From an uncultured Candidatus Saccharibacteria bacterium (lineage in GTDB: Bacteria; Patescibacteriota; Minisyncoccia; UBA9983): DNA of 64,000 bases. The position numbers and the translations under genes are program-made. Shown one piece after another: positions 20,890 to 52,627 of this stretch (positions within the stretch are counted from its first letter, which is position 1; each line of letters starts with the position of its first letter). The notes beneath the pieces were generated by a model that saw only the letters and a program-made list of their open reading frames with translations, was not told where the DNA came from and ran no database searches. The stretch is taken from positions 6,563 to 70,562 of the forward strand of contig CAYJQX010000001.1 of assembly GCA_964372755.1 (NCBI GenBank), read 5' to 3'.

Positions 20890-21873
20890 ATGAGGATTAC
20901 CGCGTACCTTCCAACCAAAAGAAATGCTTATTGGATTTTGGCCGTTTTGATAATCTCTATCGGCCTTTTGGTGGTGTATCCGAGAAAGAAGATTCCAAAT
21001 TATTCTTATTCTAAAAATCTTTCTGGAATTCTTTCTCAACAAGCCGGAGGAGCAGACGATATAGACGGCGATGGCCTGAAAGATTGGGAAGAGGTTCTTT
21101 GGAAAACGGATCCGAATAGTCCAGATTCGGACAATGACGGCACTTCGGATGGAGAAGAGGTGGCTCTGGGCCGTGATCCGTTAAAACCCGGCCCAGACGA
21201 TATTTTCAACAATCCTCTCGCTTCAAATGTTTTTGTAAACAAATACGATACCGAGACGGAAGGTCTCTCCAGAAGGCTTTTTGCCGAATACTTAACGCTC
21301 AAGAAAGACGGGAGCTTGGATGACGAAACAAAAACGCAAATTATAGAAAGATTCATTAATGATTTGCCGGGACAAGACGGAGCGAAAGACCCTTTCACCT
21401 TGGCTGATTTGAAAATATCAAAAGATAATTCCGCCAGTGCTTACAGGAGGTATGGGAATATTTTAGGGCTTCTTGTGGCGGAAATGACCAAACCGGTAAA
21501 CGAGGAAGAATTGGAAATATTTTCTCGAGCCGTTGAAACAAATAATAATGAAATTTTGAAAAAATTGGATCCGGCCAAAGAAACTTTCAGAGGAATCGCT
21601 TCCACAATATCTCTGATGGAGGTTCCTTCGGGTTTGGCGGAAAATCATTTGACGTTGCTTAATTCTTTAGTTGGCGCCTATTATTCTCTCTCCGCCATGC
21701 AGGAAGTAAATAACGATCCCGCTCTCGCCTTGGGAGGCTTAAACGCTTATCAGTATGAGGTGGAGGTTATTACCGGTTCTTTTAAAGTGATCAGCCAAGC
21801 TGTCAAAAATAAAGGCGTGGTTTATTCTCCCAAAGAAGCGGGCGCTCTTATTTTTGAACTGGGCTCCGTTTAA
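20890..21873 (+). CDS. membrane-anchored hypothetical protein with Asp-rich calcium-binding-like repeats
   Basis: N-terminal TM. DIDGDGLKDWEE and DPNSPDSDNDGTSDGEE resemble thrombospondin type 3 or EF-hand-like D-x-D-x-D-G loops. Confidence 0.4.
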   Translation: MRITAYLPTKRNAYWILAVLIISIGLLVVYPRKKIPNYSYSKNLSGILSQQAGGADDIDGDGLKDWEEVLWKTDPNSPDSDNDGTSDGEEVALGRDPLKPGPDDIFNNPLASNVFVNKYDTETEGLSRRLFAEYLTLKKDGSLDDETKTQIIERFINDLPGQDGAKDPFTLADLKISKDNSASAYRRYGNILGLLVAEMTKPVNEEELEIFSRAVETNNNEILKKLDPAKETFRGIASTISLMEVPSGLAENHLTLLNSLVGAYYSLSAMQEVNNDPALALGGLNAYQYEVEVITGSFKVISQAVKNKGVVYSPKEAGALIFELGSV

Positions 21874-21887
21874 TTTTTGATATTTAA

Positions 21888-23945
21888 ATGAAAATTTTCA
21901 GTAAAAAAATTATTTCCCTTTTTATCGTCTCCTCCATTTTTTTGCAGATGCTTTTGCCTGTTGTTGTTTTGGCGGTGGAAGATGGAGCAAGCTTGGGAGG
22001 AGGAGAAAGCTCGTCCGGTTCCGGAGGAGCTGGCAGTTTGATACCGGGGAATGGTTGCTTCAGCGGAAAGGGCATCATGGGGAGAATAAGAAGTTTTGGC
22101 GAAAGAGTTTTTGGGGGCAAAGAGAAAGAGCAGGGAGCCAAAAATGTTTCCGATTTAGAGTTTAATGTAAGCGAGCTTGAAGCGGCGGCTGAAGAAGAAA
22201 ATGCGGCCAATCTCATTAAAGAGCAGGCTTCTCTTGAGAGGTTTCAAAAAGTTTTTGGCGACAAATTGAAACTCGGCTCGGCGGCTTCCGCTGTTTCCGA
22301 TGCCACCGGAATTTCCGGTTCAAGCGCATCCAGCGCGGCCAAAAGGGGTTTAAGTAGCGCGACTGAATTCGGAGCCAAACTTATTCCTATCCCCGGCGCC
22401 GGGGATGCAATAAGGGGAGCTCTTGGCAAGATTCCCGGTATTGGTGCCGTCTTTGGCGGAGGTCCGCAAGAAACAAAAGAAGTGGACGGCCCTCTTCTTG
22501 ACGCCACCAAGAACCTTTATGAAGTCCAGAAGGAGATGCTAAAAAAACAGGAGGAGACAAGAAAAATTGTTCAGACGGAGTGCGTCAAAAGCCATATTTA
22601 TGATTCCATCGCGTGGTTTGTGGCCAAGCGCATCATCCATAGTTTTACCACTAGCATTGTCGGATGGATAAGCGGGGAAGGCAAATCCGATCCGAAATTT
22701 ATCGTCAATACTCCAGAGTTTTGGAAAGATGTGGCAAACGAAGCCTCCGGTTTGGTCATAGAAGAGTTGGGGGTGGGGGATCTTCTTTGCAAGCCTTTTA
22801 AATTTCAACTCCAGTTTGATTTGAAGTTTAGGCAAAAAAGATTGGATACGAGACTGAAATGTACGGCTGACGACGTGGTGGATAATTTCAGGGATAGTTT
22901 TTCCTACGGCGGGTGGGATAGCTGGCTGAAACTTACAGCCAATCCGCAAAATTATTATTCCGGCGCCTATCTTTCTTCTTTGGACGAAATAGCAAGAAGG
23001 AGACAGGAAGCCGTTGAGGCGGCAAAGACGGATCAGGAAGCGGGGGGAAATTTTATGGGAGTAAGAGTGTGTGTAAACCAAACAGCAAACGGTTTGTGCG
23101 CGCGCTGGGAAACTAGGACTCCCGGAAAAACGGTGAGCGATCTTTTATCCCGTGCTTTAGGGAGCGATATTGCCCAGCTTGAACTGGCCGATGAGTTTAA
23201 CGAAATTGCCGTCGCTTTGGTTAATCGAATGAGAGGCTGGATTGTAACAGGCGGAGGAGGAAACAAAGGACTCCTAAAATTTGACGGGAAAATAGAAGAG
23301 GTGGCTGATTCTTCGGGAACGGGAGGAGGCGGATCCGGACAAACAGGGGGAGGGAACACTTCTTCCGATAATCAAGTAGAGACAAAAAGAGCGGAAATTA
23401 TCTCTCGCTTGGATGCTTATCTTTCAAGAGAGATTGCCTACAGGGACGCAAAACAAAAAATCTTAGACTTTATTTTAGAGAACGAGGGAAGTTACACGGA
23501 CTTAAAATTATGTTATCAGGGACAATTTTTTGTTAATCGCCAGAAGTTTTCCGGTAAAACAAACCCGACAGAAGCTGAAAAGGCGGAATTTGAGAAGGAA
23601 GACGAAAGACTCTCTGGCCTCATTGCCGGAGTGGGCGCCACCACTACCTCAATCTTTGGTCCTCTTGCAAGCGGTGTTCAGACAGAAATAGACCGCTCGC
23701 AAGCAATCATTGATGAGTTTTTTGACGGCAAATCCATCGCCAGAAATGTCACTATACTTGAGGCTTTAAATAGCGTGGAGGCAAATTATTTAAGCGGAGA
23801 GGCGATTAGGAATGTTCATGATGGTCTGGACGTGAAAAACGCGGAAGACGAGCTGGAGAGTTTGAAGAAAACTTTGAGTGAGAAAAGCGTTGAAACAGAA
23901 TTTAACAAATGTTTGGCCGATCTGGAAATCTTAAACAAAAAATGA
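21888..23945 (+). CDS. secreted hypothetical protein (685 aa)
   Basis: Signal peptide MKIFSKKIISLFIVSSIFLQMLLPVVVLA and Gly/Ser-rich linkers. Its stop overlaps the start of the next gene (ATGA). Confidence 0.4.
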   Translation: MKIFSKKIISLFIVSSIFLQMLLPVVVLAVEDGASLGGGESSSGSGGAGSLIPGNGCFSGKGIMGRIRSFGERVFGGKEKEQGAKNVSDLEFNVSELEAAAEEENAANLIKEQASLERFQKVFGDKLKLGSAASAVSDATGISGSSASSAAKRGLSSATEFGAKLIPIPGAGDAIRGALGKIPGIGAVFGGGPQETKEVDGPLLDATKNLYEVQKEMLKKQEETRKIVQTECVKSHIYDSIAWFVAKRIIHSFTTSIVGWISGEGKSDPKFIVNTPEFWKDVANEASGLVIEELGVGDLLCKPFKFQLQFDLKFRQKRLDTRLKCTADDVVDNFRDSFSYGGWDSWLKLTANPQNYYSGAYLSSLDEIARRRQEAVEAAKTDQEAGGNFMGVRVCVNQTANGLCARWETRTPGKTVSDLLSRALGSDIAQLELADEFNEIAVALVNRMRGWIVTGGGGNKGLLKFDGKIEEVADSSGTGGGGSGQTGGGNTSSDNQVETKRAEIISRLDAYLSREIAYRDAKQKILDFILENEGSYTDLKLCYQGQFFVNRQKFSGKTNPTEAEKAEFEKEDERLSGLIAGVGATTTSIFGPLASGVQTEIDRSQAIIDEFFDGKSIARNVTILEALNSVEANYLSGEAIRNVHDGLDVKNAEDELESLKKTLSEKSVETEFNKCLADLEILNKK

Positions 23946-26254: not shown

Positions 26255-27010
26255 ATGAAAAAACATTCTTTTGAAGACATAAAAAAAGCTTACGCTTCTT
26301 TGCCGGAAGATTTGATTGAAGCGGGGTCTTCTGTTCAAACCACAGAAGCTTTAAGGGACATAGGCAAAAAATATGGGCTGATGATGGATCAGGCCGGGGA
26401 AATGGCGAGCGAAGCCGGTTCCGTCATCCTCGGCCTTACGCCTGTCCAGGAATTTGTTCCCAATCTTCAGGAAAGACTTGGAGTTTCTAAAGACATTGCC
26501 ACAAAGATAGCGGAAGACATCAGCGCTCAAGTTTTTTCCAAAGTAAGGGAGTCGATGAAAAAGATTCATTCAACTCACGGCGGAGATCAAGCTCTTTTAG
26601 AGGTGAAAGAAAATGCTCCCGCGGAAAAAAAGGATGATGTGCTAAAACATTTGGATGAAGACGCGGAAATAGAAAAGGATTTGAAAACAATGGTTGTTTC
26701 CAAAAACACGGAAGAAGAAAAAAAGAGATTTCCTGTGAGTGATTTAATTAATGCTTCTTTAGGTCTGGAGAGCAGGGAAAGAGAAGAATCTTTTCCCATA
26801 AACGACCTTATTAATGCATCCCTTCCTCCAGAGAATTTGCCGATCAATGGCTCTTCGAATTTACCACGACAGGAAAAAACTTCATCTACGCCTGTCCCTA
26901 AACCTCCGGTAAAACCAGCCGTTCCTCAAATAACCAGAATGCCGAAAGAAGAAAAAACACTGAATGTTCCCCTAAAGACAAAAGATCCCTACAGAGAACC
27001 AATAAGTTAG
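26255..27010 (+). CDS. hypothetical protein with tandem FP(V/I)SDLINASL repeats
   Basis: RFPVSDLINASLGLESREREESFPINDLINASLPPE. Pro-rich C-terminus. Confidence 0.4.
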   Translation: MKKHSFEDIKKAYASLPEDLIEAGSSVQTTEALRDIGKKYGLMMDQAGEMASEAGSVILGLTPVQEFVPNLQERLGVSKDIATKIAEDISAQVFSKVRESMKKIHSTHGGDQALLEVKENAPAEKKDDVLKHLDEDAEIEKDLKTMVVSKNTEEEKKRFPVSDLINASLGLESREREESFPINDLINASLPPENLPINGSSNLPRQEKTSSTPVPKPPVKPAVPQITRMPKEEKTLNVPLKTKDPYREPIS

Positions 27011-27034
27011 AAATAACAACTAAATCTAAAAGCG

Positions 27035-27466
27035 ATGAAATTTCAAGTTCCGCAATTCATAGAAGTTGAGACAAAAATATTCGGGCCGCTGACTTTGAAG
27101 CAGTTTTTGTATTTAGCCGGAGGCGCCGGCGCTTCTATCGTGCTCTACAGTTTGCTCCCTTTCTTTTTGATGATTATTTTCGCTGCGCCGATTGTCGCCC
27201 TCGCCCTCGCCCTCGCTTTTTACAAGCTAAATAATCAGCCTTTTGTGAGGGTGCTTGAAAATGCCATTAAGTTTTATCTGTCAGGCAGGCTTTTTTTGTG
27301 GAAGAAGACGCCAAATGAGGACAATAAATCAGTTTCTGTTGATAAAGAAGGAATATTGAAAACTGCGGGAATACAAACAAGCGGAACAACAGGTTATGTG
27401 CCGAAATTAACGCAAAGCAAATTAAAAGATTTATCCTGGAGTTTGGATATTAATAAAGAAACATAA
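27035..27466 (+). CDS. PrgI-family (VirB3-like) small membrane protein of Gram-positive-type T4SS
   Basis: MKFQVPQFIEVETKIFGPLTLKQFLYLAGGAGASIVLYSL matches the PrgI family N-terminal consensus (K.P.D.E...IFG.LT.RQF.YL) followed by a TM hairpin. Confidence 0.6.
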   Translation: MKFQVPQFIEVETKIFGPLTLKQFLYLAGGAGASIVLYSLLPFFLMIIFAAPIVALALALAFYKLNNQPFVRVLENAIKFYLSGRLFLWKKTPNEDNKSVSVDKEGILKTAGIQTSGTTGYVPKLTQSKLKDLSWSLDINKET

Positions 27467-27608: not shown

Positions 27609-27624
27609 TGTTATAATTAAATCG
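27609..27624 (+). promoter_or_regulatory. extended -10 TGTTATAAT positioned 7 nt before the ATG (leaderless-type promoter)
   Basis: TGTTATAAT taaatcg ATG. The same layout recurs at many genes in this window. Confidence 0.45.
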
Positions 27625-28284
27625 ATGGCTATAAGTTCACAAGCAACACAAGTATTTGTTCCCATAAAAGAAATTCGTGAAGGAGTGGTTATTTTAAAAG
27701 ACGAATCGTTCAGAATGATTTTAATGTGCTCCACTCTGAATTTTGCTCTTAAATCTGAAGACGAGCAGAGCGCCATTGTCATGCAATATCAAAATTTTTT
27801 AAACTCCCTTGATTTTTCGGTGCAATTTTTTATCCAGTCGAGAAAATTAAACATTAATCCATACCTTACTACCCTTGAAGAGGCAAGAGTTCAACAGCCG
27901 AACGAGCTTTTGAAAATCCAAACAAAAGAATACATAGATTTTATTAGAAATTTTGTTACAACGACCAATATAGTGGAGAAAACTTTTTATGTGGTTGTGC
28001 CTTATGCTTCCTCCATTGCCATGCCCACAAAATCTTCGAACCCCATAAGCGGAATTCTTTCTATTTTTTCTCGGAACAAAGATAATCTGGGGCAGGCTGA
28101 GGCAATGCGTTTTGCCGAAGCAAGACTGCAAATTCAGCAAAGAGCAGACGTGGTTTCTCAAGGCTTGGCTGGAGCCGGCATTCGTTCCAAACAGCTTGGA
28201 ACGGAGGAGTTGATCGAGCTCTATTACAAACTTTTCAATCCGGGCGAGCTGGAAAAAGAATCTCTTAAAAGCATAAAATCATAA
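27625..28284 (+). CDS. virB4: VirB4/TrbE/CagE-family T4SS ATPase, N-terminal domain fragment
   Basis: VFVPIKEIREGVVILKDESFRMILMCSTLNFALKSEDEQSAIVMQYQNFLNSLDFSVQFFIQSRKLNINPYL matches the conserved VirB4 N-terminal domain. It ends with TAA one nt before the next ATG. Confidence 0.65.
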   Translation: MAISSQATQVFVPIKEIREGVVILKDESFRMILMCSTLNFALKSEDEQSAIVMQYQNFLNSLDFSVQFFIQSRKLNINPYLTTLEEARVQQPNELLKIQTKEYIDFIRNFVTTTNIVEKTFYVVVPYASSIAMPTKSSNPISGILSIFSRNKDNLGQAEAMRFAEARLQIQQRADVVSQGLAGAGIRSKQLGTEELIELYYKLFNPGELEKESLKSIKS

Positions 28285-28285
28285 C

Positions 28286-30154
28286 ATGAGCATATTAGAT
28301 TCCTTAAAAAATAATTCTGTCACCCCAGCTCCTCAGACGCCGCAACCTTCTTTGCAAAATCCTTCTGTGGCAAGCGGAGAAATATTGCCGGTCATACCTC
28401 AAAATATTTATGAATATGGCGTTTTAAAATTGCAGGACGTTATTGCTCCGTCGGCCCTGGAAGTAGCTTCAAACCACATAAAAATCGGCGAGAAGGTAGC
28501 AAGGGTGATTTTTGCCATGTCTTATCCGAGATTTTTATCATCGGATTGGTTTTCTCCGATAGTTAATCTCGATAAAGTTTTTGATGTTTCTATTTTTGTT
28601 CATCCGATAGATACCGCTTCAGTTTTGCATCAAATGCAGAGAAGGGTGGCGGAAGTGCAATCTCAAATTAACGAGAGAGAATCCAAAGGATTGGTGCGCG
28701 ACCCGATGCTCGATACCGCTTATCAAGATCTGGAGAATTTACGCGATGACCTCCAACAGGCCACTGAAAAATTATTTAATCTAGGGCTTTATGTTACGGT
28801 TTATGCCGACTCACTGGACGAATTGGATAAAATAGAAACGGAAGTGCGCCAGATTATGGAATCCAAGCTTATTTATGTAAAACCGGCTCTTTTCCAACAG
28901 CTTGACGGGCTCTACACGGTCTTTCCTTTTGAGACGGATAAATTGGACATTCATAATCAGATGAATTCGTCTCCTCTCTCTTCTCTTTTTCCTTTTGTCT
29001 CTTTTGATCTTTCTTCCGACAGAGGAATTCTTTATGGAGTAAACAGACACAATAACGGCCTTGTTCTTTTTGATCGATATTCTCTGGAAAATTACAACTC
29101 GGTAGTTTTTGCCAAGTCTGGTTCGGGAAAATCTTACGCGACCAAATTGGAAATTTTGCGTACCCTTATGTTTGATACGGACGTGATCGTGATAGATCCG
29201 GAGAGGGAATATGAATATCTGGCGGAATCGGTAGACGGACAATATTTCAGCATCTCTCTTTCATCCAAACATCATATTAATCCTTTTGATCTGCCTCCTG
29301 TGGGCGAAGGAGAATCCCCCTCGGATGTTTTGAGAAGCAACATCATTTCCCTCGTGGGACTCTTTCGTTTGATGTTGGGCGGTCTTACGCCGGAGGAAGA
29401 CTCTGTTATTGACAGAGCGATTACCGAAACTTACGCTTCTCGCGATATCACGCCGGACACGGATTTTTCTACTCTTCCTCCACCGACTTTGTCGGACTTA
29501 GAAATTATTTTAGCCAGTATGGAGGGAGCGGAGTCTTTGGCCCAGCGCTTGGCCAAGTTTACTCGCGGGACTTGGGCCGGCTTTATCAACCAGCCGACCA
29601 ATGTTGACGTGAACCGAAAGTTTGTCGTTTTTTCCGTTCGCGACATGGAAGACGAGCTTCGTCCGATCGCGATGTATATAGTTATGCACTATATCTGGAA
29701 CATGGTCAGGAAAAATATCAGGAAAAGACTTTTGGTGGTGGATGAGGCTTGGTGGATGATGAAATCCGAAGACACGGCTTCTTTTCTTTTTGGCATCGCC
29801 AAACGAGGCAGAAAATATTTTTTGGGATTGCTCACTATCACTCAAAACGTGGAAGACTTTTTAAGTTCTCCTTACGGAGTGCCAATCATAACAAACTCTT
29901 CTATGCAGTTGCTGTTGAAGCAATCGCCTGCTTCCATAGAGATAGTGAAAAAGACTTTCAATCTTACAGAGGAGGAGAAATTTCTGCTTTTGGAATCAGA
30001 CGTGGGGGAGGGTATCTTTTTTGCGGGAGCCAAACATGTGGCCATAAAAGTCATTGCTTCATATACAGAAGATCAGATTATTACTTCCGATCCGGCCCAG
30101 CTTTTGGCCATAAAAAAAGCGCGAGAGGAAATTGGCAACCCCGTTACCGCTTGA
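28286..30154 (+). CDS. virB4: VirB4/TrbE/CagE-family T4SS ATPase, central and C-terminal ATPase domain
   Basis: Walker A VVFAKSGSGKSYAT and Walker B RLLVVDEAWWMM. The LTITQNVEDF motif is typical of VirB4. Confidence 0.75.
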   Translation: MSILDSLKNNSVTPAPQTPQPSLQNPSVASGEILPVIPQNIYEYGVLKLQDVIAPSALEVASNHIKIGEKVARVIFAMSYPRFLSSDWFSPIVNLDKVFDVSIFVHPIDTASVLHQMQRRVAEVQSQINERESKGLVRDPMLDTAYQDLENLRDDLQQATEKLFNLGLYVTVYADSLDELDKIETEVRQIMESKLIYVKPALFQQLDGLYTVFPFETDKLDIHNQMNSSPLSSLFPFVSFDLSSDRGILYGVNRHNNGLVLFDRYSLENYNSVVFAKSGSGKSYATKLEILRTLMFDTDVIVIDPEREYEYLAESVDGQYFSISLSSKHHINPFDLPPVGEGESPSDVLRSNIISLVGLFRLMLGGLTPEEDSVIDRAITETYASRDITPDTDFSTLPPPTLSDLEIILASMEGAESLAQRLAKFTRGTWAGFINQPTNVDVNRKFVVFSVRDMEDELRPIAMYIVMHYIWNMVRKNIRKRLLVVDEAWWMMKSEDTASFLFGIAKRGRKYFLGLLTITQNVEDFLSSPYGVPIITNSSMQLLLKQSPASIEIVKKTFNLTEEEKFLLLESDVGEGIFFAGAKHVAIKVIASYTEDQIITSDPAQLLAIKKAREEIGNPVTA

Positions 30155-36520: not shown

Positions 36521-37927
36521 ATGAACAAAAAAATTCTCTTGCTTGCGATACTTGCTTTCGTTTTAGGAATGGGATTTTCCAAAGCTTTGGCTAATTGGTC
36601 TCCTCCTACCACTAATCCTACGGCGGGAAATGCCCCCACTCCTATTAGTGTTTCTGATTTGTCTCAATATAAAGGAGGGGCGCTTGGTGTGGGCGGTCTT
36701 TTTCGCGCTTTCAGTAATGTTTTGATAGACGGAAACCTTAATTTTTCTGCCAGCTCTACCGGAGCAATCAGAGTAAATGTTCCCGGCAAGCTCAATGCCA
36801 CCCAAGTTTGTATTAATGGAGATTGCAGAGGTAGTTGGGTCTCCGGAGGGGGTGGAGGTACAACAGTCAGCAACAATGGCTCCACTCTTGTGGCTGGAGA
36901 GGGCTTGAGTCTTTCTGATGGGACTCTTTCTTTGAATATAAATAACGGCACTGTCCAAACTTGTCCATCCGGTCAAAAGGCAGATGGCTTATCCCCGCTA
37001 GGAATTATTTCTTGTTCTGCCGATGCTGCTGGAGGTGTAGGGGGTTCGAACGTTTCTGGAGGGACAATAGGGAATCTAGCTTATTTCACCAGCCCAACTA
37101 CTTTGGGTAACTCTGCTCTTACACAGAACAACAAGGGAGCTCTTTACACTGGAGGCGCTTTGGGTGTGGGCGGACGTCTTGTTACTTGGGGGGGTTTTAA
37201 TGTGGGTTTGCCGGGTTTGGTGAATACGGCTCAAGTTTTTGTAAGACGCCCGAATCTTGGTGGCCAAGGAGTTTATGTTGGTAACCTCGATCCGGCTGGC
37301 TCTACTGATGGTTTTTCCACTAATTTTTCCGCAAACGCTACTCATTTCTCGGCGTTGATTAATGGCCAACCAGTTTTTAGTGTCGTCGGGAACGGGGACG
37401 GAAGTTTTAAAGGTAACCTTACGGTGGGTGGTACGGCTACTTTTGATAATGTCGTCACTTTCAAAAATAAATTAGAATTGTGGCCTCTGGATTTGCAATC
37501 TAATTCAGTGTCGGGTGGAGTTTCTCTTTCAAGTTCTGCAAGCGGTCGTTTTGATATCATGTTCGGAAACAAAGTAGGGGCTTTGTTCAACGCAAATGGA
37601 AACCTGACTCTTCCGGGCATAAATGATGTAAATGGTGGCCACATTAGAGCCGGACGACTGGAAATTGTGGACGGAAATTTTGTAACCACTATAGACGATA
37701 GTGTTTTGACAACCCAAGACGTGAATTTGCAGGATCCAAAATGGTCTATCACTAAACCAGAGCAAACAGCTCCCACAGTTAATACCACTAGGACAATCGG
37801 CGCTGTTTTTTACGATGAATGGAATAGGTGTCCAACAGGATATTTTATAAGCGGAATAAGGTTCGGCAAGAAAACGGCCGTGGGCGCAACCGCGGCAACC
37901 ACTGTCATAGAATGCAGCAAGCTCTAA
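36521..37927 (+). CDS. secreted Gly/Ser/Thr-rich fibre/adhesin-like protein (paralog family A)
   Basis: Signal peptide, then ANWSPPTTNPTAGNAPTPISVSDLSQYKGGALGVGGLF and a Cys-x-G-D-C-x-x-x-W motif (VCINGDCRGSWVS). Shares an N-terminal module with ORF 39280-40692. Confidence 0.5.
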   Translation: MNKKILLLAILAFVLGMGFSKALANWSPPTTNPTAGNAPTPISVSDLSQYKGGALGVGGLFRAFSNVLIDGNLNFSASSTGAIRVNVPGKLNATQVCINGDCRGSWVSGGGGGTTVSNNGSTLVAGEGLSLSDGTLSLNINNGTVQTCPSGQKADGLSPLGIISCSADAAGGVGGSNVSGGTIGNLAYFTSPTTLGNSALTQNNKGALYTGGALGVGGRLVTWGGFNVGLPGLVNTAQVFVRRPNLGGQGVYVGNLDPAGSTDGFSTNFSANATHFSALINGQPVFSVVGNGDGSFKGNLTVGGTATFDNVVTFKNKLELWPLDLQSNSVSGGVSLSSSASGRFDIMFGNKVGALFNANGNLTLPGINDVNGGHIRAGRLEIVDGNFVTTIDDSVLTTQDVNLQDPKWSITKPEQTAPTVNTTRTIGAVFYDEWNRCPTGYFISGIRFGKKTAVGATAATTVIECSKL

Positions 37928-39150
37928 AAAGAATTATATTGGCGGGTGTTTTGCTTTTGGTTTTTTCTTTTTTACCTGTCGTTCGCGCGGCTGGCACGGA
38001 AGTTTCTATAAACGGGCAAGCTTGGTCTTCCAATATCGGTTGGATAGATTTTCAGCCCGCCTTCGGCGGAGTTAAGTATGACACTTCAAACGGTAACCTT
38101 TCCGGATACGGCTGGTCTTCCAATGTCGGCTGGATAAGTTTTGAAAATAACGACACTAATAATTGTCCGGCCGGTTCTTGCAGGCCGAAAGTAATTCAAG
38201 ATAGCGACAATCCGAGTGATCCGACAAAGGGCATGGTTACCGGTTGGGCGAGAGTGGTTTCCGCTTGCGCGACAGACAAGTGGAACGGGAGTAATTGCAC
38301 AGGCAACGGAAGCGCGGGAAATTTAGCTGGAGGCTGGGACGGCTGGATAAGTTTTAATTGCACCAATAGTAACGGATGCGGAACTTCTAACTATAAAACA
38401 AAAATCAATCACGTAACGGGGGATTTTTCTGGTTATGCCTGGGGTTCGGACGTTGTGGGTTGGATAAGCTTCAATTGCACCAATCACAGCGGATGCGCCC
38501 AATCAAATTATAAAGTAACAAAAACCCCGGTAGTGGCTCCGACAGTGGATCTTACAGCCACTCCTTCTTCTGTAAATCAAGGCGGGTCTTCCACTCTTTC
38601 TTGGACTTCAACGGATGCAACCTCTTGTGATGCTTCGGGCGATTGGTCTGGCAGCAAAACAACAAGCGGATCTTCTGGAACAGGGACGCTAAATTCGCCA
38701 CCGGCTTCTCGCTCATACACGCTCACCTGTACTGGTCCGGGTGGAAGCTCTTTTGATACTGTGGCAGTTTCGATTCTTTATGATTTTGGAATAACTTCCA
38801 CTCCGGCAAATACGCAGGCGACATTTATAAGCGGTGCGTCTGCTTCAACGACGCCGGTAGATATCACCATTTCTCCCCTTGGCGGGTTCGCTCAACCTGT
38901 TTCCCTTTCTGTTTCTTCTATCACCAAAGATACGGACGGATCTCCGGTTACTGGTTTTACCTATAATATGAACCCAGCAACACAAAGTTCCCCCTACAGC
39001 TCTGGTTCTACTCTAGTGATTACTCTTCCTGGCACCACTCCGGCTGGAAGTTATACTGCCACGATTCAAGGCACAGGCGGGGGCTTGGTACGCACAACTT
39101 CTTTGAGAATCAACAGTGGCGGGGTGACGCCGGAGGTAAGGGAAAGATAG
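37912..39150 (+). CDS. secreted Cys-rich repeat protein
   Basis: Signal peptide MQQALKRIILAGVLLLVFSFLPVVRAAG. Repeats GWI(D/S)F...N..GC...NYK, x3 or more. Thr/Ser-rich C-terminus. Confidence 0.45.
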   Translation: MQQALKRIILAGVLLLVFSFLPVVRAAGTEVSINGQAWSSNIGWIDFQPAFGGVKYDTSNGNLSGYGWSSNVGWISFENNDTNNCPAGSCRPKVIQDSDNPSDPTKGMVTGWARVVSACATDKWNGSNCTGNGSAGNLAGGWDGWISFNCTNSNGCGTSNYKTKINHVTGDFSGYAWGSDVVGWISFNCTNHSGCAQSNYKVTKTPVVAPTVDLTATPSSVNQGGSSTLSWTSTDATSCDASGDWSGSKTTSGSSGTGTLNSPPASRSYTLTCTGPGGSSFDTVAVSILYDFGITSTPANTQATFISGASASTTPVDITISPLGGFAQPVSLSVSSITKDTDGSPVTGFTYNMNPATQSSPYSSGSTLVITLPGTTPAGSYTATIQGTGGGLVRTTSLRINSGGVTPEVRER

Positions 39151-39279: not shown

Positions 39280-40692
39280 ATGAAAACAACCAAAACAATT
39301 TTAATTAGCGCTACGATCTTTACGGCTATTTTTATTGGCCAAGTTGTTTTTGCCTCTTGGACTGCCCCAACAGCTGATCCGACAGCCAACAACACGGAAG
39401 CGCCGATTAATGTAAGTGGTATAACTCAAAGCAAAGCGGGCGCTCTGGGGTCGGGAATTTTCAAAGCTTATGGGGATGTTGTGGGTTTGATTGACAACAT
39501 GCAGATTGTCGCAAGCGGTAATTCAAATACAAACAAAGGAATTACTATCGGCTATGACACTTCCGGCAACGTCGGGCACATATATTCCAGAGAAGTCGGA
39601 GCGGGCTCAAGGCCTTTGTCCTTGAACGGAAATAGTTTATACAGCACTGGTCTAAACGGTTCTGTGGGTATTGGCAATAATTCGCCGACTCAAAAATTAG
39701 ATGTCACAGGCAATGTCAAAGCCACTCAATTCTGTTTGGGTGCAAGTTGTATAAGCGACTGGACTTCAACCGGCAATAGCCAATGGACAAACGTAACGGG
39801 AGGCATTAATTATAGCGGTGGCAACGTAGGAGTGGGGGCCTCGACACCCGGAGCAAAATTCCATGTTTCAGGCACTTCTCTTTTTGACGGCAATATTACC
39901 CTAGATATTGCCGGTTCCGGCAATGATAGTCCTTCTCTCACTTTTGTAAGGTCTCCAAACGCCAACTGGTCTTTTCAAGACAGAAGCGGAAATTTTTATT
40001 TGGACACGAACTCTGAGGCCGACCAAACATTTTTTGTTTCAAACACGAATTCATCAAGAGTAGCTTCTCTTGATGTTGAAGGGAATGTAAAAGGAAGCCA
40101 ATTATGTATTGGCGGTGATTGCCGTACTGCTTGGCCAAGCACGGGGACATCATATGTTGGTAGCGCAAACATAGGCATCAGTGGCAGTACAATAAGTTTG
40201 GTCAGTTCGCCGACAGTTTCAAGTCTTACTTCTCAAGGTGCTATTTCTGCGAACTCGTTAAATCAATCGACTTATGGTTTACTTGTTCCCAATGGTAACG
40301 TCGGGATTGGCACGGCAGCTCCAAGTTCTAAGCTTGAAGTTGTGGGGAATATAATTGCCAACAGTCCGATTGCTAGTAATCATGTGGCCACGAAAGGATA
40401 TGTTGACGCTCAAGCTGGCGGAGCGCAATCGGTCATGGTTAAATCTCAATCCTCCTCCGTCAGTTGTCCGTCGGGATATGTGATTGCTAAATGCGGTTTT
40501 GGGAGTGGAAACAACGCTCAAGTCCAGAGTGAGGTCAACAACGGCGCAGCGCAATCATTTCAGGACGGGATAGAGACGGGCAGTACTCTTACGCGGACGT
40601 ATTGTCGTTATAACGATCTCGGTAGCCAAACGGCCACAAATCCGTATCCCAACCAAAAGAACGCTGCTGTAGCGCTTTGTGTCAAGCAATAG
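39280..40692 (+). CDS. secreted Gly/Ser/Thr-rich fibre/adhesin-like protein (paralog family A)
   Basis: Signal peptide, then ASWTAPTADPTANNTEAPINVSGITQSKAGALGSGIF. Two copies of the C-x-G-x-x-C-x-x-x-W motif (FCLGASCISDWTS, LCIGGDCRTAWPS). Confidence 0.5.
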   Translation: MKTTKTILISATIFTAIFIGQVVFASWTAPTADPTANNTEAPINVSGITQSKAGALGSGIFKAYGDVVGLIDNMQIVASGNSNTNKGITIGYDTSGNVGHIYSREVGAGSRPLSLNGNSLYSTGLNGSVGIGNNSPTQKLDVTGNVKATQFCLGASCISDWTSTGNSQWTNVTGGINYSGGNVGVGASTPGAKFHVSGTSLFDGNITLDIAGSGNDSPSLTFVRSPNANWSFQDRSGNFYLDTNSEADQTFFVSNTNSSRVASLDVEGNVKGSQLCIGGDCRTAWPSTGTSYVGSANIGISGSTISLVSSPTVSSLTSQGAISANSLNQSTYGLLVPNGNVGIGTAAPSSKLEVVGNIIANSPIASNHVATKGYVDAQAGGAQSVMVKSQSSSVSCPSGYVIAKCGFGSGNNAQVQSEVNNGAAQSFQDGIETGSTLTRTYCRYNDLGSQTATNPYPNQKNAAVALCVKQ

Positions 40693-41388: not shown

Positions 41389-42582
41389 ATGAAAAAGACA
41401 CTAGCAATGCTTATTATGGCCATGTTTTGCCTTGTTTTAACGGCAAATTGTGGCGGAGGAAAGAATCCGGTCGGAGGACCAAATCCGACACCCACACCGA
41501 CCCCAACACCAACGCCGACTCCGACACCAGATCCTACTCCAACTCCTACCCCGACTCCAACCCCCGCAAATTGGCCGATTATTGATTTCCCCGTGGATTT
41601 TTATCCGCGAGGAGTCGCCGTGACCGGCAATGTTTTAACGGTTGTAGGAGTAAGAACGAGTCCTGGAATTTCCAATGCCATAGCTGGCTTCGTTTTTGGC
41701 TACAACAAAGAGACAGGAGAGAAAATCTGGCAGGCCGTTGTTCCCGAAATGAAAGAAACGGGATACACGAGAGGGATCGGAGCCAGAGACAACAATATTT
41801 ATTTCCCATGGAACCAAACAAACCTGGCCGGCAAGGTGTATGTCAGCGCATATACCAACACCGGTTTGAAGGTGGATCCATGGCCGGTGAAGCTGGCGGA
41901 TTCTGATTATCAGACAGGTTTGGTGGCCAATGGACAGATCTTCGCTTCCACGCTGGAGAAAGTAACATCCTTTTCTCTGAATGGGGACATGATTTGGTCC
42001 AGCACTCTTGGACTTAGCCATGTTTACGAAGCGATATCAAGTATTGCTTCTGCCGGAGGCGATATTCTGGTGGTTGGCAGTACCACGCGGAGTTTGTACA
42101 AAACATCCCTCGGAGACTGGGATATTTTCTTGACCCGCAGAGATTCTATGGGGAATAAAGTGTGGAATATCCAGTGGGGGGATGACACCAGAAATACCTC
42201 CACATGGGGAGTGGCGACCAATAATTCCCATATCTTTTTGGGAATTATGACTGGGGCTAAGACCGGGGAACCTGGGACCACCACACGGGTTATAAGTTTT
42301 TCTTTGGGTGGTCCGGATAATGCCGACCCAGTCTGGATCTCATCTGATCTTGATGGTGGTGGTGCATACGGCATACGAGCTCTTTCGGCTGAAGGCAACG
42401 ATATCTACGTGCTATTAAAGCACGGCCTTCAGAGGGTTGATGCCACAACCGGCATCCTGGGATGGAAAATCCCAGAGGTCAGTTCAGACCAATTCGGAGG
42501 CATTGTCGTTGACGGCGGGTATCTGTATGTTGTGAACGGAGAGAAGCTCTACCGAGTATCTCGCGGTGGAGCCGTCTCCTAA
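41389..42582 (+). CDS. lipoprotein with (Pro-Thr)n linker and beta-propeller-like domain; compositionally atypical
   Basis: Lipobox LTANC. PTPTPTPTPTPTPTPDPTPTPTPTPTP linker. Clear GGAGG SD 7 nt upstream. Local GC visibly higher than flanks. Confidence 0.5.
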   Translation: MKKTLAMLIMAMFCLVLTANCGGGKNPVGGPNPTPTPTPTPTPTPTPDPTPTPTPTPTPANWPIIDFPVDFYPRGVAVTGNVLTVVGVRTSPGISNAIAGFVFGYNKETGEKIWQAVVPEMKETGYTRGIGARDNNIYFPWNQTNLAGKVYVSAYTNTGLKVDPWPVKLADSDYQTGLVANGQIFASTLEKVTSFSLNGDMIWSSTLGLSHVYEAISSIASAGGDILVVGSTTRSLYKTSLGDWDIFLTRRDSMGNKVWNIQWGDDTRNTSTWGVATNNSHIFLGIMTGAKTGEPGTTTRVISFSLGGPDNADPVWISSDLDGGGAYGIRALSAEGNDIYVLLKHGLQRVDATTGILGWKIPEVSSDQFGGIVVDGGYLYVVNGEKLYRVSRGGAVS

Positions 42583-43703: not shown

Positions 43704-44081
43704 ATGGCTAAAATTCTTTTTATAGAAGACGAAGTAAAATTCCAAAAGTCCTTTATGGAATTTTTTAGCAGGGAAGGCTTAGAGGTGATTCCTGCTTACG
43801 ACGGTGTCTCCGGATTGAAAATGGCGGAGGAAAATATGCCGGATTTAATAATTTTGGATCTTGTTTTGCCTAAAAAAGACGGTTTCGAAGTTTTGAAAGA
43901 AATAAAAACCAACGCTCTTCTTCAAAAAATCCCGATCATCGTACTCACAAACTTGGAAGGAGCGGAGGACATAGAAAGGGTAATGAAATACAAGGTGCAA
44001 GATTACCTTGTCAAAGCCAATTATTCTCTGCAGGAAATTTTGGGAGTAGTAAAAAAATATGTTCCGAATTCTAACTCATGA
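43704..44081 (+). CDS. stand-alone response regulator receiver domain (CheY-like)
   Basis: Receiver motifs ILFIEDE, the phospho-acceptor region IILDLVLP, IIVLT and the conserved K. Confidence 0.8.
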   Translation: MAKILFIEDEVKFQKSFMEFFSREGLEVIPAYDGVSGLKMAEENMPDLIILDLVLPKKDGFEVLKEIKTNALLQKIPIIVLTNLEGAEDIERVMKYKVQDYLVKANYSLQEILGVVKKYVPNSNS

Positions 44082-45838
44082 AAATAACTAATAATCAAAT
44101 TAAGCTTTTTCTTCTGGACTCTGATTTAGTTTCAGCCAAAGATGTTGCGGAAGCGGAGGAAAAAGCTAAGAAAGAAAACAAATCCCTAGGAGAAGTTTTG
44201 GTCTCGTCTGGAAAAATTTCAGAAGATCAGATGAGTCGTCTCTACGCCTATATAATGGGAATTCCTTTTTTAAGCCTTGAACACGAAAAGATAGACAGCA
44301 AAGTTCTCTCCATCATACCCGAACCGATTGCGCGGAGCCATAACATTGTGGCATACAAGCTCACAGGAGAAGAACTTGAAGTGGCTATGCTTGATCCCGA
44401 CGATCTGGAGACCATCGAATTTATCAGAAAGGCTAATAAATACAAGATAAAACCTCGTCTTACGGATCAAAAATCCATCAAGCAAGCGCTTTCCCAGTAT
44501 CAGAAAAGTTTGGGCGCGGAATTCGGAGAAATTATAGACACTGAAGCTAAACTTGTAACGGTAAAAGACAAAGAGGGCGAAGACGTTTCGCAAGAAGATT
44601 TAAAAAAACTTGCCGAAGATTTGCCGGTGGTAAAAATTGTCGATACTCTCTTGAGGCACGCGATTTTGCAAAGAGCCAGTGATATTCATATAGAGCCGAT
44701 GGATAACCAGGTTATTGCTCGCTATCGGATAGACGGGATTTTGCACGATGCTATGAATTTACCTAAGGAAACGGCTTCCGGTATTATCGCGAGAATCAAA
44801 GTGTTGGCGAGTTTAAAGCTGGACGAAAAAAGATTGCCTCAAGACGGGCGTTTTAAAATTGAAAGCCAAGAAGATAAAGTTTCCCTGCGTGTTTCTATTT
44901 TGCCGGTCTACAATGGCGAAAAAGTGGTTATGCGTATTCTGAGGGAAAATGCTAAAGGGTATACTCTTGAAGGCTTAGGTATTTCCCCAGATCAAATAGA
45001 AAGAATTCAAAATGCAATGAGAAGACCTCATGGCATGCTTCTTGTAACCGGTCCGACAGGCTCGGGTAAAACTACCACTCTCTACACCATTTTGGATATT
45101 TTAAATACTCCCGCAGTGAATATTTCCACGATTGAAGATCCGATAGAGTATCAAATGCCGCGTATCAATCAAAGCCAAGTCAAGCCAGAAATTGGATTTT
45201 CTTTCGCCAACGGCTTGCGTTCCCTGTTACGGCAAGATCCGGATATTATTATGGTGGGGGAAATCAGAGACAACGAAACGGCCGCGCTGGCTATAAACGC
45301 GGCTCTTACCGGACATTTGGTGCTCTCCACTTTGCATACAAACTCTTCAGCAGGAGCGATTCCAAGATTGATTGATATGAAAGTGGAACCTTTTCTTTTG
45401 TCTTCTACTTTGAATCTTATTGTCGCCCAGAGGCTTGTGCGCAAACTTTCTAAAGACAAGGAAAAATATTTTTTGAGCAAAGACCAATACGAAAGTTTAT
45501 CCAAAGAAGTCGATCTAAATCTTATTTTAGATTATTTGAAAAAATGGAAGATAATTCCAGTTAATGATAAAGAAAAAAATCCGTGGGAAAAAATTCCCTT
45601 TTATTTGCCGAAAGCGGGAGAGGATTCTGCCGATGGCTACTCGGGCAGGGTAGGGATCCACGAATCTATCCTTGTAACAGAAACGATAAGAGCCATGATT
45701 ATCGGAAATGCTTCTTCCGATGAAATAGAGAAACAAGCGAAAAAAGAAGGGCTGATGACAATGTTAGAAGATGGCATTGTAAAGGCAGTGCAGGGGATTA
45801 CTTCCATTGAAGAAGTGTTAAGAGTGACAAGAGAATGA
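44078..45838 (+). CDS. pilB: type IV pilus assembly ATPase PilB (GspE family)
   Basis: N-terminal GSPII-like domain, Walker A LVTGPTGSGKTTT and the His box LVLSTLHTNS. Overlaps the RR stop and the pilC start (ATGA). Confidence 0.9.
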   Translation: MKITNNQIKLFLLDSDLVSAKDVAEAEEKAKKENKSLGEVLVSSGKISEDQMSRLYAYIMGIPFLSLEHEKIDSKVLSIIPEPIARSHNIVAYKLTGEELEVAMLDPDDLETIEFIRKANKYKIKPRLTDQKSIKQALSQYQKSLGAEFGEIIDTEAKLVTVKDKEGEDVSQEDLKKLAEDLPVVKIVDTLLRHAILQRASDIHIEPMDNQVIARYRIDGILHDAMNLPKETASGIIARIKVLASLKLDEKRLPQDGRFKIESQEDKVSLRVSILPVYNGEKVVMRILRENAKGYTLEGLGISPDQIERIQNAMRRPHGMLLVTGPTGSGKTTTLYTILDILNTPAVNISTIEDPIEYQMPRINQSQVKPEIGFSFANGLRSLLRQDPDIIMVGEIRDNETAALAINAALTGHLVLSTLHTNSSAGAIPRLIDMKVEPFLLSSTLNLIVAQRLVRKLSKDKEKYFLSKDQYESLSKEVDLNLILDYLKKWKIIPVNDKEKNPWEKIPFYLPKAGEDSADGYSGRVGIHESILVTETIRAMIIGNASSDEIEKQAKKEGLMTMLEDGIVKAVQGITSIEEVLRVTRE

Positions 45839-47052
45839 TCTTTGCTTACAAAGCTAAAAAAATATCCGGCGAAAAAACAGAGGGCGCGTTGGAAGCTCGT
45901 GACCGTTTTGAACTGGCTCGCAATCTGCGGTCTAGCGGGTTCATTCTGACCGAATGGGAAGAAGCAAACAAAGAAAAGGGAAATGTTCTTAACATAAATT
46001 TTTCATTTCTTCAAAAAGTGTCTCTTTCCGATAAAATGATTTTCAGTAAAAATCTTTCAGCCATGGTTTCAGCGGGCATGCCAGTCGTAAGAGGGATAGA
46101 GACGTTAGCACGGGAGACAAGCAATAAAAATTTTCAAAAGATTTTAAAAGATATTGCCGACAATATCAAACGAGGAAAAAGCCTGAGTGAAAGCTTGAAA
46201 GAACATGAGAAAATCTTCTCTCCGCTTTTTGTCGCCATGGTCAAGGTAGGCGAGGAGGGCGGTAAACTTTCGGAATCTCTTTTACTTATCGGTTCTCAAC
46301 TGGAAAGAGACAACACGCTAAGAAGGAGAATCAAGGGAGCTTTGATGTATCCCCTTATAATATTGCTTGCTATGTTCGGGATCGGCGCGCTGATGATGAT
46401 TTACGTGGTGCCAACCTTGGTGGGTACTTTTACAGAGCTTGGAGTGGAACTTCCTAGCTCCACCAAGCTGATAATTTTTTTCAGCAATTCCCTCTCGCAT
46501 AATCCCATAATTACCTTCTCTATAATTTTTGCTTTAGCGGGGAGTCTTTTTTGGTTTTTAAAAACGGAAACAGGCAAAAGAATGATTGTGGAAATCATGC
46601 TTAAAATGCCGGTGCTTTCTGTTTTGGTCAAAAAGATTAACTCTGCCAGAACAGCCAGAGCCTTATCTTCTCTCATCGGTTCGGGTGTTAATTTGGTGGA
46701 AGGTTTGAATATTACTAAAAATGTTTTACAGAATTATCGTTACAGGGCAATTTTAGAAGAAGCTAGCAGTCGAATCCAAAAAGGAGGCACCTTATCGGAA
46801 ACTTTTCTCCGTTACGAAAATCTTTATCCCTCTTTGGTTGGAGAAATGGTTTCGGCGGGAGAAGAAACCGGCAAGCTCGGAGAAATGCTCAATCGCTTGG
46901 CTGACTTTTATGAAGAGGAAGTGGCTGATTCCACAAAAGACTTGTCCTCCATCATTGAGCCGATTATATTAATTTTTATCGGCATAGCAGTAGGCTTTTT
47001 TACAGTTTCCATGGTAAAACCTCTTTATTCGGTGTTAGACACCATTCAATAA
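45835..47052 (+). CDS. pilC: type IV pilus inner-membrane platform protein PilC (GspF family)
   Basis: Two GspF repeats with three TM helices. Confidence 0.85.
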   Translation: MIFAYKAKKISGEKTEGALEARDRFELARNLRSSGFILTEWEEANKEKGNVLNINFSFLQKVSLSDKMIFSKNLSAMVSAGMPVVRGIETLARETSNKNFQKILKDIADNIKRGKSLSESLKEHEKIFSPLFVAMVKVGEEGGKLSESLLLIGSQLERDNTLRRRIKGALMYPLIILLAMFGIGALMMIYVVPTLVGTFTELGVELPSSTKLIIFFSNSLSHNPIITFSIIFALAGSLFWFLKTETGKRMIVEIMLKMPVLSVLVKKINSARTARALSSLIGSGVNLVEGLNITKNVLQNYRYRAILEEASSRIQKGGTLSETFLRYENLYPSLVGEMVSAGEETGKLGEMLNRLADFYEEEVADSTKDLSSIIEPIILIFIGIAVGFFTVSMVKPLYSVLDTIQ

Positions 47053-50706: not shown

Positions 50707-51150
50707 ATGAATGAGCAAAAAATAGTCATTTATACCGATGGCGGAGCGAGAGGGAATCCGGGACCTTCAGGTATTGGAATTGTCATAAAAAATGAAAAAG
50801 AGGAAGCAATTAAGGTGTTTTCCGAGAGTATTGGTTTTAGAACTAACAACGAAGCGGAATATGAAGCCGTAATTATCGCCCTCATGAAATTAAAAGAAAT
50901 GACTTTGGAAGATGCTAAAAAAATTTCTGTTGAAATAAGAATGGACAGCCAGTTGGTAGCGAGACAGTTGAAGGGTGAATGGAAAATTAAAGAGAGTCGC
51001 TTAAAGGCCTTATCTTTGAGATTTAGCCAACTCGCTTCAAATTTTAAAGCCGTGAATTTTGTGGAAATTCCGAGAGAAAAAAACATTGAGGCGGACTTAT
51101 TGGCCAACAAGGCGATGGATTTGGCCGAAGAATCAAATTCGGAAATGTAA
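50707..51150 (+). CDS. rnhA: ribonuclease HI
   Basis: IYTDGGARGNPGPSGIG and the downstream E and D catalytic residues (NNEAEYEA, EIRMDSQLV). Confidence 0.8.
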   Translation: MNEQKIVIYTDGGARGNPGPSGIGIVIKNEKEEAIKVFSESIGFRTNNEAEYEAVIIALMKLKEMTLEDAKKISVEIRMDSQLVARQLKGEWKIKESRLKALSLRFSQLASNFKAVNFVEIPREKNIEADLLANKAMDLAEESNSEM

Positions 51151-51160
51151 GCCTTTTGAA

Positions 51161-52627
51161 ATGGATGTTTTTCTAAAAACAATTGTCGCCGGGTTCACCC
51201 TCGGTGTCTTTGTTTCTTCCGTATTTCCGCTCGACGACATTCTTATCCCTATCGTTTTTAGCTTCTTCTCTTTTTTTATTTTAGTTATTAGTTTTTTTCT
51301 GAGAAAGAAAACTTTCTTCCTGTTTTGCGGTCTTTTTGGTTTTTCTTTAGCCTTAGGAACTTTTTATTTTATTTCCTCAAGTCCGAAAATTATAAATTTT
51401 ATCCCGCAGAAGATTATTTTCGATGGCTATGTCAGCGAAGAACCAGACGAGAGGGAAAATAACGTAAGGCTGGTTATTGAATCGGAAGAATATGGGCGAA
51501 CGATGGTATATGCAAAAAAATACCCCTCCTTTTTTTATGGAGATAGGGTGGTTATCGAAGGGCTTTTAAAAAAACCAAAAGGTTTCCTTGATGACCGAGG
51601 GGAGTTTTTTGATTGGCCGGCATATCTTGCTAAAGACGGAATAAACAGCGAGATGATTTATCCAAAAATAGAGAAAGCGGAGGGGTTTTCAGGAAGTTTT
51701 TTTATCCGGAAGCTTCTTGAATTCAAAAATCTTTTCGTAAGATCTTTAAGGGCAAATATTCCGGAGCCGGAAGCCTCACTTTCCTCTGGAGTAACCATAG
51801 GAGCAAGAGGTTCTTTGCCTTACGAGATGGAGAATGATTTTAGAATATCCGGACTTAGTCATATTGTGGTTGTCTCCGGATACAATGTTTCCTTGGTGGC
51901 TGATTATATTTCCAGACTGGTTAATTTTTTCTCGGTCAGAGCCAGTTTTCTTTTTGGATTCTTGGGAGTTGTGGCATTTACTTTTATAACTGGGGCCTCA
52001 GCCACGGTTGTAAGGGCTTCTATTATGGCTTCTTTGATTCTTGTGGCAAGAAAAACTGGCCGGATGTATGCCGCTCCTCGGGCTCTGTGCATTGCTGGAT
52101 TTCTGATGATTTTAGAAAATCCCCGGCTTCTTGTTTTTGACCTCTCGTTTCAGCTTTCTTTCTTGGCTACGCTGGGTATTATGCTTTGTTCCAAACCATT
52201 GGAGGAAAGATTTTACAAATTGCCGAATTTTTTGGGCATCAGAGAAATAGCCTCGTCTACTCTTTCGGCGCAAATTTTTGTTTCGCCTCTTCTTGCCTAT
52301 AAAATAGGCATGGTTTCTTTTTCTGGAATTATTGCCAATCTTCTTGTTTTGATCACGGTGCCATTTCTAATGTTCTCTTCCGCGCTCACGGGGTTGCTTG
52401 GCATATTTTCTGAAATTCTGTCTTTGCCCTTTGCTTATGTTTCCTATATGGTTTCTCATTATATTATCGCTGTTTCCCATTACACGGCACTGATCCCGTA
52501 TGGATCGACAATCTTAGAAGATTTTTCCTTATCTCTTATGGTGTTGATTTACATAATAATTTTATCGGGTTTATTTTTCCTTATAAAATTAAATAAAAAA
52601 CAAGGATCTCAGCAAGATGAACAATAA
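51161..52627 (+). CDS. comEC: competence protein ComEC/Rec2 (DUF4131 + competence channel domains)
   Basis: Polytopic membrane protein with the competence-domain motif ISGLSHIVVVSGYNVSLVA. Start placed at the internal Met after rnhA. Confidence 0.7.
   Translation: MDVFLKTIVAGFTLGVFVSSVFPLDDILIPIVFSFFSFFILVISFFLRKKTFFLFCGLFGFSLALGTFYFISSSPKIINFIPQKIIFDGYVSEEPDERENNVRLVIESEEYGRTMVYAKKYPSFFYGDRVVIEGLLKKPKGFLDDRGEFFDWPAYLAKDGINSEMIYPKIEKAEGFSGSFFIRKLLEFKNLFVRSLRANIPEPEASLSSGVTIGARGSLPYEMENDFRISGLSHIVVVSGYNVSLVADYISRLVNFFSVRASFLFGFLGVVAFTFITGASATVVRASIMASLILVARKTGRMYAAPRALCIAGFLMILENPRLLVFDLSFQLSFLATLGIMLCSKPLEERFYKLPNFLGIREIASSTLSAQIFVSPLLAYKIGMVSFSGIIANLLVLITVPFLMFSSALTGLLGIFSEILSLPFAYVSYMVSHYIIAVSHYTALIPYGSTILEDFSLSLMVLIYIIILSGLFFLIKLNKKQGSQQDEQ

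Follow-up and report, generated by a model that had tools for sequence, protein, structure and literature searches.

A VirB4 ATPase encoded by two adjacent genes in the chromosome of a Patescibacteria bacterium

When a VirB4 ATPase is found spread over two open reading frames (ORFs), is it the product of two genes, or of one gene that is damaged, recoded or misassembled? The question is raised by a stretch of 64,000 nucleotides (nt) of contig CAYJQX010000001.1 (assembly GCA_964372755.1), from an uncultured Candidatus Saccharibacteria bacterium (Patescibacteriota). In this stretch, hereafter the window, ORF1 (219 amino acids, aa) and ORF2 (622 aa) follow each other in a type IV secretion system (T4SS) locus (Table 1). 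An earlier note on the DNA had recognised VirB4 in the pair and had left four options: a natural two-gene split, a frameshift pseudogene, a programmed frameshift, or an indel introduced by sequencing or assembly. We conclude with high confidence that this is a natural two-gene VirB4, in which a TrsD-like first half and a short ATPase are probably made by coupled translation and reassemble into one unit. Two-gene VirB4 is a standard, conserved and already published arrangement in Patescibacteria, and a Pfam family exists (PF26593).

Results

The two ORFs cover complementary parts of VirB4

Across the junction the sequence reads ...AAA TCA TAA C ATG AGC.... As the earlier note had described, the first ORF ends with TAA one nucleotide before the ATG that opens the second, and the two lie in different frames (27625 mod 3 = 1; 28286 mod 3 = 2). 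The sequence and the list of ORFs agree on both points.

ORF1 aligns with positions 15-174 of 375 of Pfam TraC_F_IV, with 6-119 of 752 of the NCBIfam model for the CD1110 family of VirB4 proteins, and with 101-241 of 894 of NCBIfam Mbov_0397, the model for VirB4 of a Mycoplasma integrative and conjugative element (ICE). ORF2 matches later parts of the same models: 185-734 of the 752 positions of the CD1110 model (NF045971, E 1.4e-115), 293-893 of Mbov_0397 and 287-373 of TraC_F_IV. Its score on NF045971 is 387.3 bits, above the curated cut-off of 325, which places it in the VirB4 family. ORF2 also matches Pfam P-loop_TraG, AAA_10 and DUF87. In all three models the coverage by ORF1 and ORF2 is complementary and without overlap, and the two proteins minus the linker add up to about the length of a full-length VirB4.

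ORF1 is assigned to the Pfam family 'TraC-like' (PF26593) through the precomputed annotation of a 100% identical protein (P0001), and the related protein P0003 is annotated 'TraC-like' by name. PF26593 was not reported for ORF1 by our local Pfam scan. ORF1 contains no hydrophobic segments and is cytoplasmic.

In ORF2 the N-terminal domain of VirB4 is continued by residues ~47-243, which form its second half (TraC_F_IV 287-373), and residues 244-600 are the C-terminal ATPase domain. The latter align with the crystal structure of the C-terminal domain of Thermoanaerobacter pseudethanolicus VirB4 (PDB 4AG5, E 1.3e-45), and the ATPase domain also aligns with residues 446-734 of TrwK. Both Walker motifs lie here, on the second ORF, where the earlier note had put them (AKSGSGKS at residues 276-283 and LLVVDEAW at residues 482-489). 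ORF2 does not carry a complete N-terminal domain of its own: positions 1-184 of the CD1110 model are absent from it, and ORF1 supplies 6-119. The same note had taken ORF1 for the conserved VirB4 N-terminal domain. The N-terminal identity is confirmed by the model matches, but ORF1 holds only about the first half of that domain, and the rest is on ORF2. Because residues 244-600 of ORF2 by themselves make up the ATPase domain, the cut does not separate the N-terminal from the C-terminal domain; it falls about halfway through the former.

The junction was correctly described as low in complexity; it is A-rich (AAAAGCATAAAATCATAAC) and also poorly conserved. Alignments of homologues to ORF2 start only at about residue 32-45, and the C-terminal tail of ORF1 has a predicted local distance difference test (pLDDT) score below 50 in the predicted structure. 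These alignments mark the head of ORF2 (residues 1-45) as a linker remnant, and the break in VirB4 falls within a disordered linker of variable length. Rfam, promoter and terminator scans around the junction gave nothing above chance, with no terminator between ORF1 and ORF2.

A natural fusion weighs against an accessory protein

ORF1 was searched against 1.84 billion cluster representatives (50% clustering), which gave 2,369 matches. The best 150 of these, with identities as low as 34%, are almost all short proteins that stand alone, and only one is fused. The fused protein (P0362; cluster members MBI3088895.1 and MBI2506916.1) has 797 aa and occurs in three metagenome-assembled genomes (MAGs) of Candidatus Colwellbacteria. 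Its residues 1-214 align with residues 1-211 of ORF1 and its residues 226-796 with residues 45-614 of ORF2, leaving a linker of only 11 residues between the halves and no duplication. The two ORFs, taken in order, therefore correspond colinearly to one polypeptide that exists in nature. The fused form may be a secondary re-fusion.

In the least unlikely of the alternatives, ORF1 would be no piece of VirB4 but an accessory protein in its own right, a duplicate of an N-terminal module that works beside a complete VirB4. Some support for it comes from a study of T4SS in Patescibacteria by Quinonero-Coronel et al. 2025 (PMC12102498). There, the relation of TrsD to the VirB4 N-terminus is called 'remote homology' and no function is assigned to TrsD, and the TrsD homologues of Gracilibacteria do not adjoin virB4. 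For the homology between TrsD and VirB4 the study cites Guglielmini et al. 2014 (PMC4027160), whose main text does not mention TrsD. A duplicated module is hard to reconcile with an ORF2 that lacks the very model positions supplied by ORF1, with the fused protein, in which each half occurs once and in the same order, or with a summed length close to that of one VirB4. We consider an accessory protein improbable.

Seven stand-alone homologues of ORF1 are unusually long, at 350-443 aa (P0283, P0348, P0361, P0305, P0352, P0297 and P0259). They carry C-terminal tails of 130-230 residues that are rich in Pro, Gln, Ala and Thr and disordered in appearance. More generally, the extra length of ORF1 matches of 280-443 aa consists of such Pro/Gln/Ala/Thr-rich tails in the eight examples inspected.

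The split is conserved among relatives

One genome per species was scanned, which gave 80 related loci. Of these, 75 had enough downstream DNA to be used; the other five, whose contigs end 27-179 bases past the ORF1 stop, were left out. In all 75 the ORF1 homologue stops at 207-225 aa and is followed by an ORF2 homologue on the same strand, L006 among them. The earlier note had proposed to ask whether orthologues have the same two-ORF layout with conservation intact, and the answer is positive in every one of the 75 related species. Together with the conservation of both halves, this bears out the natural two-gene split among its four options.

The junction itself varies. Spacer lengths lie between -83 and +460 nt; an ambiguous choice of start codon underlies the large negative values, and two loci have a clear ATGA overlap (-4). 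Across the 74 loci of the junction scan, the frame relation between the halves is 0 in 21, +1 in 37 and +2 in 16. Most frequent is a stop-N-ATG junction, whose spacer is 1 nt (13 of the 74); it is also found in the 75th relative, L027, which has TAA-C-ATG and the +1 relation as in the window. Of the two closest relatives, L083 (ORF2 95% identical) has TAA-T-ATG and L082 a spacer of 4 nt.

Split lengths are also the rule in wider searches. Each half gave ~8,000 significant matches, and among the best 120 of each the ORF1 homologues measure 207-230 aa and the ORF2 homologues 581-628 aa. Named homologues are overwhelmingly from MAGs of Patescibacteria, Parcubacteria or Paceibacterota, and many loci carry generic or Saccharibacteria labels only. 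Compared with L083, the ratio of nonsynonymous to synonymous substitution rates (dN/dS) is 0.029 for ORF1 and 0.025 for ORF2, rough values in that dS is near saturation. Purifying selection on both halves is nonetheless clear, and strong.

These results bear directly on the three other options of the earlier note. A programmed +1 ribosomal frameshift or a bypass of the stop codon would turn the two ORFs into one full-length VirB4, and we regard it as all but excluded. Relative to ORF1, ORF2 does lie in the +1 frame, and a C comes directly after the stop, a context superficially like that of the prfB frameshift site. However, a TAA at 28274-28276 closes the ORF2 frame, and a shift could occur in just two open codons (28277-28282) before the end of ORF1. 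There is no slippery motif at the junction, since TCA cannot re-pair in the +1 frame, and neither an Rfam element nor another notable signal was found there. Moreover, with frame relations of 0, +1 and +2, spacers up to 460 nt and some overlaps among the relatives, no single recoding mechanism could be conserved.

A frameshift pseudogene, that is, a single virB4 broken by a 1-nt indel and now decaying, would account for two ORFs that lie 1 nt apart in different frames and jointly cover one VirB4 model, but it fails against the split in 75 of 75 related species with varied spacers and frames, the dN/dS of about 0.03 in both halves, the split lengths of the best homologues, and an ORF2 with its own ATG whose first ~45 residues are the variable head typical of the family. 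An indel error in sequencing or assembly could also split a gene artificially, and in this metagenome-assembled contig the A-rich, low-complexity junction would be a likely place for one (such errors being commoner there). It is contradicted by the record of an identical 219-aa ORF1 protein from both NCBI and Logan sources, by the junctions of L083 and L082, which come from other samples and assemblers, and by the family-wide split. From the layout in relatives, the selection on both halves and the independent record, we therefore treat both the pseudogene and the indel as excluded for practical purposes.

Two related loci deserve separate mention. In L003 the ORF2 homologue, which starts at position 2197, has 824 aa compared with the usual ~605, which points to an extended C-terminus or to fusion with the gene that follows. 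In L054 (JAMPXW010000001.1) a split pair typical of Patescibacteria occurs in a MAG labelled 'Burkholderiales bacterium', and many further related loci bear the label 'uncultured Candidatus Saccharibacteria'. Artefacts of binning or naming, and not true taxonomy, seem to be behind these labels.

Relation to known systems

Like the T4SS described from Patescibacteria, the window has a stand-alone relative of the VirB4 N-terminus, of ~210-225 aa in that group, directly upstream of virB4, with PrgI/VirB3-like and VirB6-like genes nearby, all in a chromosome and among housekeeping genes. The clustering of VirB4, a TrsD homologue, PrgI/VirB3 and a VirB6-like protein that marks these chromosomal systems is present here, the VirB6-like member being assigned from a weak match together with the TrbL_3 domain of its syntenic orthologue. 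We see no substantive difference from the published systems, and the window is one more instance of them. According to PMC12102498, TrsD homologues stand beside virB4 across Patescibacteria: 2,272 were found in 2,221 Patescibacteria assemblies, 1,664 of them associated with virB4. The TrsD homologue of Southlakia epibionticum is listed there as essential; in a published transposon screen cited in the same study, the corresponding components are listed as essential for epibiotic growth of this organism. To what the available text of that study reports, our analysis makes modest additions, namely the strict complementarity of the halves, a break point in common with TrsE, a disordered and variable linker, and the rare fusion in Colwellbacteria.

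The Staphylococcus aureus plasmid pSK41 (pGO1 type) has three consecutive genes, trsC, trsD and trsE, for proteins of 135, 227 and 672 aa. Like the window, pSK41/pGO1 (class MPF-FATA, subclass pGO1) thus combines a VirB3-like protein, a protein of ~220 aa and a short VirB4 of 620-670 aa; the corresponding series in the window, in the same order, is PrgI, ORF1 and ORF2, of 143, 219 and 622 aa. TrsE covers positions 183-730 of the CD1110 model and ORF2 starts at 185, so the two share the same break point. In both gene layout and position of the break, the window has a split VirB4 of the TrsD/TrsE type. The second halves are also related over their whole length (BLASTP of ORF2 against TrsE, E 4e-32, end to end), with ORF2 colinear from its residue 51 onward with TrsE from residue 36. 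Unlike the window locus, which is chromosomal, pSK41 is a conjugative plasmid with a relaxase, a coupling protein and a topoisomerase.

Single-chain VirB4 proteins, such as CD1110 of Firmicutes ICEs, TrwK of R388 and TraC of F, are one polypeptide of 750-830 aa. Compared with these, the chain in the window is cut ~200 residues in, within the N-terminal domain.

Several observations weigh against a natural two-gene VirB4 with a TrsD-like first half and coupled translation. BLASTP of ORF1 against pSK41 TrsD gave no match. A profile of 29 ORF1 homologues aligned with TrsD by hhalign over 175 colinear columns, with E 9e-5 and a probability of 59%. Neither was ORF1 matched at E <= 0.01 by the NCBIfam model for TrsD/TraD (NF041427, cut-off 200 bits); the fused Colwellbacteria protein has a weak match to this model (32 bits, E 8.5e-8). 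Given this weak similarity, 'TrsD-like' denotes a remote relationship and not membership in the NCBIfam sense. Foldseek matches to TrwK reach an E of only ~0.05. Some relatives have spacers of 100-460 nt, and tight coupling is therefore not universal in the family. Finally, the direction of the event could be either way, a full-length gene having been split or two ancestral genes having been fused elsewhere.

For annotation, the natural two-gene VirB4 means that the two genes should stay separate and that their junction calls for no frameshift, pseudogene or assembly-error flag. The window adds another Patescibacteria VirB4 whose parts are a TrsD-like protein and a short ATPase. Modelling or reconstitution of the ATPase could be aided by the complementarity of these parts, the break point in common with TrsE, the variable linker and the rare natural fusion. 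Two wider readings are speculative and, in our view, rather unlikely: that the split is functionally exploited, with the first half as a separately dosed adaptor, or that the break point shared with TrsD-TrsE of pGO1/pSK41 reflects a single ancient fission. As one possibility, a free TrsD-like half could set the number of ATPase subunits that dock on the VirB3/VirB6 platform, or could be swapped between machines. A single ancient fission, if true, would tie the origin of an essential secretion system of Patescibacteria to a pGO1-like conjugative element.

Proposed translation and assembly of the pair

Gene spacings of 0-4 nt and overlaps of 4 nt are common in the window. Shine-Dalgarno-like motifs were found upstream of only 6 of its 41 genes, even with a loose pattern, and the regions upstream of genes are A/T-rich. 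With such tight spacings and rare motifs, the 1-nt gap between ORF1 and ORF2 is ordinary operon packing. The junction is likely a site of translational coupling, at which termination is followed by reinitiation.

The two genes would be transcribed together with the PrgI/VirB3-like gene upstream. Ribosomes would end at the TAA of ORF1 and restart one base further on at ORF2, and this reinitiation could give approximately equal amounts of both products where Shine-Dalgarno sites are seldom used, as in this genome. The two polypeptides would then associate non-covalently into a complete VirB4 subunit, and the rebuilt subunit would power the secretion machine once docked on its VirB3-like and VirB6-like membrane proteins.

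Upstream of the pair, a TATAAT is present at 27612-27617, ~8 nt before the ATG of ORF1. Its position hints at mRNAs with a short leader or none.

Gene neighbourhood

The order of genes around the virB4 pair is kept in L082 and L083. The polytopic membrane protein upstream is only weakly matched in the window, and its syntenic orthologue in L083 carries Pfam TrbL_3. It is followed by the conserved 251-aa gene, whose product has no family match in the Pfam or NCBIfam scans, and by the PrgI-family gene, which occupies the position of trsC in pSK41 and of the PrgI genes in L082 and L083. The PrgI-family protein is presumed to be the membrane anchor for the VirB4 unit.

Downstream of the pair are four packed genes, with orthologues in the same order in L083. 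The sole family matches among them are weak and PKD-like, in the 327-aa protein. These genes probably encode envelope components of the same secretion system. None of the small genes in this block matched a pilin family in Pfam or NCBIfam, scans that did not include dedicated pilin profiles.

The VirD4-like ATPase lies ~10 kb upstream of the virB4 pair, with an rRNA adenine dimethylase and large genes of no family in between. No relaxase was seen among the ORFs scanned, in agreement with the description in PMC12102498. Flanking genes have housekeeping functions (rRNA adenine dimethylase, inorganic pyrophosphatase, nusA, tpiA, pgk, recJ and ftsH), and the locus is therefore chromosomal.

Table 1. 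Features of the virB4 locus and its surroundings, in window coordinates
Feature	Position (nt)	Strand	Description
VirD4-like coupling-protein ATPase (type IV coupling protein-like), 794 aa	14594-16978	+	Weak Pfam matches: T4SS-DNA_transf, TraG-D_C, TrwB_AAD_bind, DUF87
Large ORFs without Pfam match, 397-876 aa	17379-20009, 21888-23945, 36521-37927, 37828-39150, 39280-40692, 41389-42582	+	
327-aa protein with bacterial thrombospondin type 3 repeats	20890-21873	+	TSP3_bac, E 1e-12; just upstream of the T4SS gene block
Polytopic membrane protein, VirB6/TrbL-like, 771 aa	23909-26224	+	Weak NCBIfam CD3337/EF1877 match, E 0.003; nine hydrophobic segments
Conserved syntenic gene, 251 aa	26255-27010	+	Syntenic orthologues in L082 and L083, 47-50% identical
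PrgI-family (VirB3-like) small membrane protein	27035-27466	+	Pfam PrgI, E 3.3e-12; two hydrophobic segments, residues 27-64
ORF1, 219 aa	27625-28284	+	TrsD-like / Pfam 'TraC-like' (PF26593); first half of the VirB4 N-terminal domain
Junction TAA-C-ATG	28282-28288	+	ORF1 stop 28282-28284, spacer C 28285, ORF2 start ATG 28286
ORF2, 622 aa	28286-30154	+	N-terminally short VirB4/TrsE-type ATPase
ORF2 head, residues 1-45	28286-28420	+	Variable, low complexity, without conservation among homologues
Walker A of ORF2	29111-29134		
Walker B of ORF2	29729-29752		
Four packed genes, 181, 327, 339 and 414 aa	30199-34002	+	Spacings of 3 nt; N-terminal or internal hydrophobic segments
Type IV pilus genes	44078-47052	+	PilB-like T2SSE ATPase and PilC-like T2SSF, 4-nt overlap
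ComEC competence channel gene	51059-52627	+	

In L082 and L083 an extra small gene (L082:5073-5402 and L083:2688-3074; 109-128 aa) separates the PrgI gene from the homologue of the 251-aa gene; its precomputed Pfam annotations are 23S_rRNA_IVP and bAvd (weak). The gene is absent from the window, which has only 24 nt at this position (27010 to 27035).

One of the large ORFs without a Pfam match, of 685 aa, has an N-terminal hydrophobic segment. In L082 its conserved orthologue precedes the VirB6-like gene, and the ORF may belong to the secretion system as a part so far overlooked.

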